The notes beneath the pieces are model-generated. The model saw only the letters and a program-made list of their open reading frames with translations, was not told the DNA's origin and did not search any database. Below are positions 52,787 to 55,614 of a stretch of DNA of 64,000 bases, one piece after another (within the stretch, counting starts at the first letter, position 1; every line of letters starts with the position of its first letter). The DNA lies in assembly GCA_000146465.1 (NCBI GenBank), contig CP001947.1. One strand, 5' to 3'. The translations under genes were made by a program, and so were the position numbers.

Positions 52787-53064
52787 AAGCTATTTGACAG
52801 AATCTGCTTATATACTTTTTTTTGGAGGGAATATCTCCCTCAAAATAATAATCATCTAAATTCAATTTTACAATCCTTGCTCGATCTAATTTCGTCGATC
52901 CCCTCTTGGCATTTGGCTTCACCCACCTAAGCCATGGCGGGAGAGCGGCCCCAGAACCTAAGCTAGGAATGACTATTTATTGTAAATAATGTTCCCTATA
53001 AAAGGAACACTGGTATTATTTATATTTACTGCACCCTATATATTATAACTATTATTGAATGTTT

Positions 53065-53717
53065 TTACTCAAGATCAATAAATTCCTTTCTCATGAATGG
53101 TAATATACGTTTTCTCGCATTTGCAAACCAATTATCTATTTGAGACAATTTTAGTCCTGTTTCTTTAGAAAGTATTTTTTTTCTATTTTAGTTGGATAAG
53201 GATTAGAAAGATGCTCCTTTAGCCATCTTCTTAGCATTTTGGACACTTCTCTTGGAAAATTAGCTCTCCTAGAATGAGGACTACTTCCGAGCCAACCATT
53301 AGTTGATGAATTATTTCTTATATAACTCTCATACCTGTATAAATCCCTCTCGTTCATTACATTCATCATATCTATGATGTTGTCCATTTTTCTTTGGAGT
53401 TTGGTGCATTCTGAATCAAATATAGAAACAAGATTTTTTTCAAATAGTAATGCATACTTAAATTTCTCAGCAATTAGAAACAAAGCTAGCTTGTGTGATA
53501 AGTTATTCGGAAAAAAATGTGTATTGGAGCATGTTTCGTAATTTTTCCGAATTTTTAATAGGACTTCCTTCAAATGATGTTCATTTATCATTCCTTGAAA
53601 ATATTGTTCTTTTGCGATTAATATTTGGCCAATATGCTCCACCATATCTAGAAAACTATCGGCATTTAAAACAAAAATTGATAAACTCGTAATTAACGTT
53701 ATAAAAATAATATCCAT
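53065..53717 (-). CDS. TALE-class homeobox protein with its frame broken by a 1-nt shift in an A8 run (frame A 53717..53175, then -1 frame 53175..53065)
   Basis: Track ORF 53151..53717 ends ...RRANFPREVSKMLRRWLKEHLSNPYPTKIEKKYFLKKQD*, which covers helices 1-2 with the TALE 3-aa loop. The -1 frame continues ILSKETGLKLSQIDNWFANARKRILPFMRKEFIDLE*, which covers helix 3. The join is at the minus-strand A8 run, 53182..53175. Confidence 0.8.
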
Positions 53718-53797
53718 ATCACTTCAGAAGACTATTATAACTTGTCAAACTCATCAAGACAAGATAAAGTATAAAATAAAAAGATATTTTACAAAAT

Positions 53798-55276
53798 ATG
53801 AATTTAGGATGGCTACTGAAGATTCCAATGCGAAAACATTCAAACAGGAAAATAATTGTATATGAAAATAGCATGGCTTCGTTTTACTCTAGGACGTTTG
53901 AAATAATTGAAGAGCATATTTCTACCATATCCAATAATGAACATCATAGAGATGGATTAGTAGAGTATATAGAAATGTTATCATATTTTCAAATCTCTAA
54001 TGAAGATCATGAGAAAAAAGAAGAAATTAATAGACAAAGGCAAAGCTTACTTAAGAAATTTAGATCCCTAACCTTAATTAGTATTTCAAAAGTAGAAAAA
54101 GACAATAGGAAAATATTGAAATCTTATCATGGAGTATTACATCTTTTAGATTTGATTGGTTTTGGTGTAAATCCTTATGAAATGGTTTTAAAAAAATGGT
54201 TAAACACCAATTGTATGATAATTAGTGATGTAGAAAGACATGCCATAAGAGGAAATTTCGAAAAAGTGATCGAAGCATATCCCTATTTAAACGAGGCTAT
54301 TAATAATTATTTAAACTTAAGGAAGACGTCAGGAAATGAATACAGGAAATTATTTGCGTCTTGGAAGATCAAATATTTTAAAATTATTCCCAATAATTTA
54401 AAGGAAATTCTTTTTCATAATATTAACGGGGATGGTATTGACTGGATTGATCATATTTGCTATAAATCGTTTTGTATGAACACACAAAGGAATGGGATCG
54501 ATCTTATAAATAGGGAAGATGAAATCGGAATGATATTAACACATAATTATGATGCACTAATAGAACGTTCTAAAGGATGGATTAGACTAGTATTATTGTT
54601 CGTTTGCCCTCATACAAAATTTGATTTATTTCCAAGAGCATTTGAATCTATCGGGAAATTCCTATATTTATCAGATTATCGCTTATCTTTGAGATTTTTT
54701 TCGTACACAGAGAAACTAATCTTATACTTTAATCACTTTTCCTGTAAGTTTTCTAAAAGTCTTTCGGATTTAGAATTCTTGGTTGAGTATTCCAAAAAAA
54801 ATAATATTAATGGAAATTCTTTGTTAAAAGAGTACTGCCAAAATCTTCTTTCTAATCAAGAGTATTATAATCTTTTTTATGTTATATCTAAATATGAGCT
54901 CTGCGATATAAACATAAATTCCGAGTTTATAGAATTCTGTATTAGAAATACAACAATACTAACTGAAAACTTCACTAAAACATCGTATGGAATTTTTATT
55001 GGAAACTTTAGGAGATTTCTTAGTGGAATAAAAGTTGGTGAAGGTGAAATTATAGCATTGATAAATTCAGATTATTTTTCAGCTCTAGATAGTAGAACAT
55101 TTGAAATAATACTAGAGAACAGATGCATTACTGTGAACATGCTTTATAAGCTTTTAGAAGGAATGTTAAATGTGGAAAGAAAAGGGAAGTCTAATCCCAT
55201 ATTGAAAAGCAAAAAAGCTTTAGTTCTCAATAAGTTAGCGGAATCTACAGGTCTCGGGAAGGACATATCAATTTAA
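53798..55276 (+). CDS. hypothetical protein (492 aa) encoded in the AT-rich island
   Basis: An uninterrupted 1.5-kb ATG ORF in about 30% GC DNA is very unlikely by chance, because stop codons are AT-rich. N/I/K/L-rich. No domain recognised and no homeodomain. Confidence 0.6.
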   Translation: MNLGWLLKIPMRKHSNRKIIVYENSMASFYSRTFEIIEEHISTISNNEHHRDGLVEYIEMLSYFQISNEDHEKKEEINRQRQSLLKKFRSLTLISISKVEKDNRKILKSYHGVLHLLDLIGFGVNPYEMVLKKWLNTNCMIISDVERHAIRGNFEKVIEAYPYLNEAINNYLNLRKTSGNEYRKLFASWKIKYFKIIPNNLKEILFHNINGDGIDWIDHICYKSFCMNTQRNGIDLINREDEIGMILTHNYDALIERSKGWIRLVLLFVCPHTKFDLFPRAFESIGKFLYLSDYRLSLRFFSYTEKLILYFNHFSCKFSKSLSDLEFLVEYSKKNNINGNSLLKEYCQNLLSNQEYYNLFYVISKYELCDININSEFIEFCIRNTTILTENFTKTSYGIFIGNFRRFLSGIKVGEGEIIALINSDYFSALDSRTFEIILENRCITVNMLYKLLEGMLNVERKGKSNPILKSKKALVLNKLAESTGLGKDISI

Positions 55277-55614
55277 ACTATTAAACTGGTAGTATCAATT
55301 TAAATTACAAATACTTTGGAAATATCTCCTTCTGTTTATTAACTTTTCAAGGGATTGCCGTTTTTTAAAACAAACATATAAGAGTGATGATACATAACTT
55401 CTTTTTGTATTCTTAAGTAAATTCATGTAAAATTTTAGAATAAAATGTCCGAAGATATTTGAGTTCCTATAGCAATAGCAGAAACACACCCTATCTCAAT
55501 TCATTATACTTCCTGGGAATCCATACTTTAAAGATTTAAAGTAAAACTAAAAAGGAAGGGGGTGTTTATTTCAATAGATTAAAATCGAAATATTGTATTT
55601 TTAAACTAAGAGAT

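Follow-up and report, generated by a model that had tools for sequence, protein, structure and literature searches.

The central part of chromosome VI of the microsporidian Encephalitozoon intestinalis is interrupted by a 2.6-kb AT-rich trough. It occupies positions 52,973–55,614 of the 64-kb stretch of contig CP001947.1 that we analysed (hereafter the window), between the genes for the ribonucleotide reductase small subunit (RNR2) and an insulinase-type peptidase, and it holds a divergent pair of genes: a TALE homeobox gene, orthologous to HD-12 of Encephalitozoon cuniculi, and Eint_060660, whose 492-aa product is predicted to resemble the nucleoporin Nup85. Our data show that the trough is conserved between species and is not foreign. 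We consider it probable that the trough is bound to its chromosomal position, as a stretch exempt from the force that raises the guanine-plus-cytosine (GC) content of chromosome cores.

An AT-rich trough conserved on chromosome VI

We determined the composition of the trough relative to the rest of the window, the region of which is also present on the 208,851-bp chromosome of assembly GCA_051312795.1; on the basis of record ranges, the trough lies at about 42% of the length of chromosome VI. The GC content of 52,973–55,614 is 28.35% (z = −13.6 against windows of the same length from the 64-kb stretch), compared with a mean of 42.66% (sd 1.05, minimum 39.8%) for 561 non-overlapping windows of that length. 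All 500-bp windows below 35% GC in a scan of the 64 kb fell within 52,701–55,800, and this is the only AT-rich patch of its kind in the window. The two resident genes have GC values at third codon positions (GC3) of 0.28 and 0.26, whereas the 40 other open reading frames (ORFs) of at least 150 aa range from 0.40 to 0.58. The left border lies near 52,990 and the right border is the insulinase stop codon: the last 40 codons of insulinase have a GC3 of 0.45, and the adjoining 100-bp windows stand at 0.26–0.29. Border width is about 150 bp or less. A sharply bordered AT-rich island had been predicted here from the letters of the sequence, and both its depth and its edges were confirmed.

We detected no tandem repeats and no meaningful direct, inverted or dispersed repeats in the island, where only short chance-level matches occurred, nor any tRNA, integrase or other mobile-element remnant; repeat, tRNA and Pfam scans thus agree with the original prediction that the island has no repeats, tRNA borders or integrase and transposase remnants. 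The sole match in an Rfam scan of the window at gathering thresholds was a tRNA-Gly at 11,385–11,455. Depletion of CpG was not consistently stronger inside the island than in its flanks, with observed/expected ratios in the four species compared below of 0.71 versus 0.54, 0.93 versus 0.61, 0.39 versus 0.54 and 0.54 versus 0.82. We rejected CpG decay driven by 5-methylcytosine as an explanation because the island shows no consistent CpG deficit.

We compared the locus in E. intestinalis (L001), E. cuniculi (L004), Encephalitozoon hellem (L005) and a relative (L006). The gene order insulinase–spacer–HD-12 is kept in E. cuniculi, E. hellem and the relative. GC at the HD-12 site is 26–30%, whereas the surrounding loci average 48% in E. 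cuniculi, 45% in E. hellem and 56–58% in the relative. HD-12 itself has a GC3 of 0.27, 0.33, 0.28 and 0.28 in the four species, with neighbouring genes of the same species at 0.46–0.58, 0.56–0.71, 0.47–0.68 and 0.75–0.83. All three codon positions take part, since GC at the first and second positions is shifted as well, and the amino acids F, Y, M, I, N and K make up 0.40–0.45 of the island proteins compared with 0.22–0.36 of the flank proteins. Island spacers have a GC of 0.22–0.29 (0.36 in the relative), against 0.28–0.65 for most other spacers. The right border is just as abrupt in the relative, in which the last two 40-codon bins of insulinase have GC3 values of 0.97 and 0.78, followed by 0.25–0.35. 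Across species the trough is 1.2–2.6 kb long, and in three of them record ranges place it at 42–48% of chromosome length. We conclude that the trough is ancient, has not ameliorated and is independent of the genomic background.

The 3′ border of HD-12 is the exact point at which the relative and Encephalitozoon cease to be syntenic (L006 10,577–11,211 onward). Past HD-12, RNR2 and PTPA are replaced by unrelated genes, the first of which is a very GC-rich 87-codon ORF, and the trough border in this species coincides with a rearrangement breakpoint.

The residents of the trough

The homeobox gene Eint_060650 is a direct ortholog of HD-12 in the E. cuniculi homeobox set (ECU06_0740, 56% identity, same synteny), and its orthologs in E. 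hellem and the relative share 52% and 47% identity. The name is that of UniProt entry Q8SRR1, 'Homeobox protein HD-12', and the E. cuniculi set is that of Burglin 2003 (cited in PMC2866331). Membership of the TALE class follows from the three-residue loop extension between helices 1 and 2 (LSNPYPT) and from the recognition helix NWFANARKR (WFxNxR), both invariant in the four orthologs, which also share a strongly conserved homeodomain and helical N-terminal region. This conservation is a clear sequence signature of purifying selection on HD-12. Neighbours that are equally diverged between species (h440, 57% identity; PH, 52%; ADK, 52%) have ordinary GC, which, together with the selection on HD-12, argues that the trough is not simply a product of fast evolution. 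Our literature search found no paper mentioning ECU06_0740, Eint_060650 or Eint_060660 and no published description of the compositional anomaly at HD-12. A metagenome scan with the HD-12 alignment was uninformative, returning two unrelated TALE genes on contigs of about 50% GC with no trough.

In the sequence as read, a run of eight T at 53,175–53,182 (plus strand; eight A, or A8, on the coding strand) breaks the HD-12 frame inside the homeodomain, before helix 3. The Pfam profile Homeobox_KN (PF05920) matches this version with 26.1 bits over profile positions 1–22 only; restoring a ninth A (A9) yields an intact 193-aa protein and a match of 69.6 bits (cut-off 24) over positions 1–40 of 40. 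The A9 allele, and with it intact HD-12, is present in GCA_051312795.1 and in the Logan assembly of ERR13302946, both otherwise identical in the island. Four NCBI accessions, of which one bears the label ATCC 50506, give the truncated product of 164 aa, and the intact product is recorded in one NCBI assembly and the Logan assembly. Because each form is thus recorded more than once, we take A8/A9 to be a genuine polymorphism between strains and not one isolated sequencing error, although a homopolymer error made repeatedly is possible. The A8 form has the look of a regulator lost in particular strains, perhaps in culture.

The divergent arrangement of the two genes is as predicted; the 80-bp spacer initially given for them holds from the first ATG of HD-12 and becomes 152 bp from the ATG at 53,645, which is the translation start used by the orthologs. 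The second gene, initially taken for an orphan, is Eint_060660 of E. intestinalis ATCC 50506 (100% identity), and orphan status did not hold. An exhaustive phmmer search returned 38 homologs of the 492-aa protein, and those with a named source are all microsporidian (Vairimorpha necatrix, Gurleya vavrai, Conglomerata obtusa, Astathelohania contejeani and Binucleata daphniae). Word-indexed protein searches with the 492-aa query or a 30-sequence profile returned the query itself alone, because AT-rich low-complexity words swamp the candidates. There was no Pfam match at E ≤ 0.1 for the protein itself and none at E ≤ 0.01 for ten homologs. An AlphaFold2 model built from a 30-sequence alignment is all helical (pLDDT, or predicted local distance difference test, 86; predicted template modelling score, pTM, 0.79), and its predicted ACE1 helical fold is closest to Nup85 structures. 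On the strength of this model, Eint_060660 is a predicted Nup85-like scaffold nucleoporin. It differs from Nup85, the ACE1-fold outer-ring nucleoporin of the Y complex, in sharing just 8–12% identity with it without a Pfam Nup85 match, in being shorter (492 aa versus about 650–750) and, at this locus, in being dispensable to E. cuniculi and E. hellem.

Among the four species, the Nup85-like gene occupies the HD-12 site only in E. intestinalis. The gap between insulinase and HD-12 is 380–550 bp in E. cuniculi, E. hellem and the relative, and therefore leaves no physical room for it. Even so, E. intestinalis and E. cuniculi share homologous sequence from HD-12 across the divergent promoter to a point 113 bp inside the Nup85-like ORF, the 5′ end of which reads MNLVWLLKVPIKENINNRESCVEFLCLYLQ followed by two stops in E. 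cuniculi and MNLGWLLKIPMRKHSNRK and onward in E. intestinalis. A relic of the first 30 codons (MNLVWLLKVPIKEN and onward, ending in two stops) lies upstream of ECU06_0740 in E. cuniculi record AL590446 (L004 9,717–9,826, minus strand). The relic and the homology into the ORF indicate that the gene was present in the common ancestor. The deletion in E. cuniculi spans about 1.45 kb; that in E. hellem has other end points and left no relic, and the two look like independent losses of the gene at this site.

Four more distant microsporidian contigs carry a homolog that adjoins the gene for Gln-tRNA synthetase (GlnRS), at L007 6,594–8,411, L008 10,001–10,939, L011 10,001–11,521 and L012 3,677–5,161, within a conserved block zf-C2H2–Yju2–Nup85–GlnRS–proteasome–PAP2. 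The gene on L008 encodes 312 aa only and may be truncated. No Yju2–GlnRS neighbourhood lies within the 64-kb window. These relatives differ widely in GC (about 53% for L007 and L008, 33% for L011 and 26% for L012), and the GC3 of the Nup85-like gene beside GlnRS is that of its surroundings: 0.72, 0.64, 0.33 and 0.17 in L007, L008, L011 and L012, compared with 0.26 in the trough. A neighbour-joining tree places the E. intestinalis protein next to that of L007, and this pair next to Vairimorpha-type sequences, as expected under vertical descent. The comparison suggests that the Nup85-like gene entered the trough before Encephalitozoon radiated and acquired the composition found there. That a relocated gene has the GC of the trough is our main argument that composition here follows position and not the gene.

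The 338-bp tail described behind the Nup85-like gene (55,277–55,614) exists; it is not featureless, as it contains a conserved block, some 118 nt long, that follows the insulinase stop codon directly on its 3′ side, on the same strand as insulinase. The block is conserved in four species (L004 about 9,503–9,640; L005 about 9,490–9,625; L006 about 9,655–9,790). Its RNAalifold consensus consists of two hairpins and a hinge, with 27 pairs, 4 of which show compensatory changes. The element has the hairpin–hinge–hairpin–tail architecture of H/ACA RNAs, with ACA three nucleotides from the 3′ end and then TTT in all four species. The hinge, where an H box (ANANNA) would lie, reads ACAATA, ACATCA and AAAATA in three species but ATAATG in E. 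intestinalis. The best Rfam match in a permissive scan was SNORA75, with 23.8 bits, well below the gathering score of 80, and a metagenome scan with a pattern of the conserved core gave no match. Conservation and consensus structure together make this element a probable H/ACA small nucleolar RNA (snoRNA). The RNA may be processed from the 3′ untranslated region of insulinase.

Could the AT-richness belong to HD-12 itself, kept in rare, AT-rich codons by selection for poor or stage-limited translation of a dosage-sensitive regulator? The borders coincide with gene ends, and the anomaly tracks HD-12 through all four species, in one of them with a GC3 of 0.28 against about 0.80 in its neighbours. 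We nevertheless hold this explanation to be distinctly unlikely: AT-richness is equally marked in the island's non-coding DNA and in the dead E. cuniculi relic, the shift extends to codon positions 1 and 2 and to the amino-acid composition, and the unrelated Nup85-like gene shares the composition only when it is located here.

Relaxed selection, under which both genes would be decaying and drifting towards an AT-biased mutational equilibrium, had been raised at the outset, and part of its factual basis stands: the HD-12 frameshift is polymorphic and, in the form that four NCBI accessions record, removes homeodomain helix 3, and E. cuniculi and E. hellem have lost the gene next to it by deletion. 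The 47–56% identity of HD-12 is also at the low end for the region. Simple decay fails to explain the trough, however. The homeodomain and N-terminal region of HD-12 are intact and strongly conserved in four species, a 492-codon ORF would arise by chance in DNA of 28.7% GC with a probability of about 1e-18 (an estimate from base frequencies), and its product is predicted to fold with confidence into the shape of Nup85. Moreover, equally diverged neighbours have normal GC, and the AT-richness is older than the gene losses. We regard decay as quite improbable.

Atypical composition and sharp borders are also what a horizontal transfer from an AT-rich donor would leave, the foreign origin considered in the original prediction. 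To this we assign next to no probability. HD-12 is orthologous and syntenic in four species, the E. cuniculi relic demonstrates ancestral presence of the Nup85-like gene, and in the tree the protein falls beside the nearest relatives that vertical descent would predict, with no donor-like signal; orthology, relic and tree refute a foreign origin for both genes. The island also has no repeats, tRNA or integrase at its borders and no mobile-element remnants or repeats within, and it has not ameliorated over a divergence that saturates synonymous sites.

A TALE (HD1-type) homeodomain (HD) gene in a divergent pair within a compositionally odd patch also recalls a mating-type (MAT) identity locus, in which idiomorphs suppress recombination and so remove biased gene conversion. 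Basidiomycete HD mating-type loci, such as Ustilago b and Coprinopsis A, are divergent pairs of HD1 and HD2 genes. The HD-12 locus resembles them in having a TALE-class gene divergent from its neighbour and in its unusual evolution. It differs in having no HD2 gene, no allelic hypervariability, no idiomorphs and, in three of the four species, no divergent partner. We found that the partner in E. intestinalis is the Nup85-like nucleoporin, with no homeodomain, and that all four species carry the same HD-12 ortholog, contrary to the MAT interpretation first offered. Between-strain divergence of the idiomorph type, which that interpretation implied, was likewise absent: three E. intestinalis assemblies show no single-nucleotide polymorphism (SNP) in the island, the A8/A9 indel being the sole difference, compared with 2–3 SNPs in about 9–18 kb of flank per comparison, and four NCBI records and the Logan assembly give one and the same 492-aa protein. 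Neither the three assemblies nor the database protein records contain a divergent allele. E. intestinalis is nearly monomorphic, which gives this comparison low power, and its very low diversity may mean that a single mating type has been sampled. Sex and mating type in Encephalitozoon are unresolved and sex is undocumented (PMC2866331). The HD clusters proposed earlier as MAT candidates in E. cuniculi (ECU03_0600/0610, ECU04_0970/1030 and ECU10_1470/1480) do not include HD-12 and themselves showed no idiomorphs (PMC2866331). A MAT locus is, in our judgement, highly improbable.

Possible causes of the proposed exemption

We return to the reading of the trough as a position-bound stretch exempt from a GC-raising force. 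Some force would drive the chromosome cores of Encephalitozoon and its relatives to a species-specific GC (GC3 of 0.46–0.83 in neighbouring genes); candidates are biased gene conversion linked to recombination and a process associated with active chromatin. The 1.2–2.6 kb between insulinase and RNR2, near the middle of chromosome VI, would be exempt from it and would rest at about 28–30% GC in every species, near the mutational floor. Residents would acquire this composition, namely HD-12, its long upstream spacer and, in E. intestinalis, the Nup85-like gene, and their AT-rich codons would enrich the encoded proteins in F, Y, M, I, N and K. Genes in the trough would also be easily lost, as suggested by the deletion of the Nup85-like gene in E. 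cuniculi and E. hellem and the frameshift of HD-12 in several E. intestinalis isolates. As the cause of the exemption we tentatively propose a small chromatin domain, either recombinationally cold or silent in transcription, that surrounds a stage-specific homeobox regulator, a suggestion in which we place slightly less than even trust. The general idea of a locus that escapes a GC-raising process was part of the original prediction and fits the data; that prediction thus survives for the island and its escape, and fails for the MAT, idiomorph, foreign and orphan interpretations.

The floor composition has a counterpart elsewhere in the genome. Encephalitozoon cores are GC-rich with a bell-shaped profile, and minima of about 24% GC occur at the transitions between core and subtelomere (PMC4704409). 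In E. cuniculi these transition zones, in chromosomes with cores of 45–59% GC, have a floor like that of the HD-12 trough (Dia et al. 2016, PMC4704409); this points to a baseline shared wherever the GC-raising force is absent. The zones differ in lying at chromosome ends and adjoining repeated, methylated subtelomeres, whereas the HD-12 trough is single-copy, central and gene-bearing.

Several observations weigh against a position-bound exemption with such a cause. The borders (about 150 bp or less) are sharper than kilobase-scale conversion tracts predict, so that a model of biased gene conversion alone requires an added hard boundary; the hard edges favour an effect bounded by a chromatin domain or transcription unit over diffuse conversion alone. 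CpG depletion in the island is inconsistent and gives no sign of decay driven by 5-methylcytosine. The Nup85-like gene and the snoRNA would have to be expressed if they are functional, and full silencing is hard to reconcile with that. For the cores of E. cuniculi, Dia et al. speak of "local minima" (PMC4704409). Finally, the sequence examined is from chromosome VI alone, comprising 64 kb of E. intestinalis and about 20 kb per other species.

The trough could instead be the centromere of chromosome VI, or its core, in the form of a short, non-repetitive AT-rich domain bound by CENP-A. Low-GC centromeres occur in diatoms, and GC-poor centromere troughs are also found in Yarrowia. With its 1.2–2.6 kb at about 28% GC, its lack of repeats, its location kept at 42–48% of chromosome length in three species and its being the sole trough in the 64-kb window, the HD-12 trough has much of the expected form, and two rearrangements touch it (the synteny break after HD-12 in L006 and the relocation of the Nup85-like gene into it). 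GC-poor troughs are established at yeast centromeres (Lynch et al. 2010, PMC2997560; Candida auris/C. lusitaniae clade, PMC8262905), and like the HD-12 trough these are short, non-repetitive and sharply bounded, with a deep drop in GC and GC3 in a GC-richer chromosome and a position conserved among related species. Encephalitozoon centromeres have never been located, and a CENP-A-like H3 exists; composition-based centromere scans in microsporidia were reported negative, and the published scans used 2.5-kb windows (PMC10158259, PMC12449221). Yeast troughs bind CENP-A, are present once per chromosome and are ORF-free; in contrast to this last trait, the HD-12 trough is filled by HD-12, which is under selection, the probable snoRNA and, in E. 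intestinalis, the second gene. The authors of telomere-to-telomere assemblies reported cores with "little to no deviation" in GC and favoured subtelomeric centromeres (PMC10158259). Our evidence comes from one chromosome of eleven, and we consider a centromere unlikely. If the trough were one, each Encephalitozoon core would carry one short, conserved, non-repetitive AT-rich trough of 1–3 kb, missed because of the 2.5-kb scan windows and the assumption that centromeres are gene-free, and the trough would provide the first sequence-level handle on microsporidian centromeres.

To our knowledge, no eukaryote has a genome smaller or more compact than those of Encephalitozoon. In the species compared, the trough has kept its place and its GC of 28% as the genomic backgrounds drifted from 42% to 58%, which suggests that composition is set by chromosomal position here. 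The history of the Nup85-like gene amounts to a natural experiment, in which one nucleoporin gene is GC-rich or AT-rich according to location. The HD-12 trough is therefore a concrete candidate locus for special chromatin, be it a silent domain or a centromere. Our analysis also corrects the annotation of Eint_060660, which is Nup85-like by predicted fold rather than an orphan, and of Eint_060650, which is HD-12 with an apparently strain-polymorphic frameshift, and adds a previously unannotated H/ACA-like RNA 3′ of insulinase.

Feature coordinates and neighbouring loci

Table 1 Coordinates, composition and supporting evidence for features of the trough and its flanks (window positions).
Feature	Position	Strand	Evidence and composition
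RNR2, ribonucleotide reductase small subunit, left flank	51806..52786	-	Pfam PF00268, 361 bits; GC 0.435, GC3 0.535, normal
Spacer from HD-12 stop to RNR2 start	52787..53064	.	GC 0.35; contains trough border and RNR2 promoter region
TALE homeobox gene Eint_060650, HD-12 ortholog	53065..53645	-	Homeobox_KN, orthology; GC 0.30, GC3 0.27-0.28
Divergent promoter spacer between HD-12 and Nup85-like gene	53646..53797	.	GC 0.22
Eint_060660, predicted Nup85-like (ACE1-fold) nucleoporin, 492 aa	53798..55276	+	GC 0.287, GC3 0.26
Non-coding 3′ flank of Nup85-like gene	55277..55442	.	About 26-32% GC
Probable H/ACA-box snoRNA	55443..55560	-	Four-species conservation, RNAalifold, weak Rfam SNORA75 match
M16 insulinase-type peptidase, annotated 948 aa, right flank	55615..58461	-	PF00675, PF16187, PF22456; GC 0.43, GC3 0.54, normal

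Just upstream of the RNR2 start, at about 52,811–52,846 (minus strand), lies a palindrome, GAGGGAGAT/ATTCCCTCC, followed by an A-run and TATATAAG. The element is conserved in three Encephalitozoon species (also on L004 and L005) and probably serves RNR2 as a promoter or regulatory element.

A 1.5-kb stretch of E. cuniculi (L004 13,903–15,430) has a gene-like GC of 0.505 and no called gene, and the matching place in E. intestinalis and E. hellem holds a gene of 434–440 aa. This is probably an annotation or index gap and not a gene loss. An adenylate-kinase-like gene (L001 18,509–19,065, about 43,721–44,277 of the window; L004 19,329–19,885; L005 19,351–19,940) has a length not divisible by three and internal stops in straight translation, with a recorded product of 177–188 aa, a layout consistent with one of the rare spliceosomal introns of Encephalitozoon.

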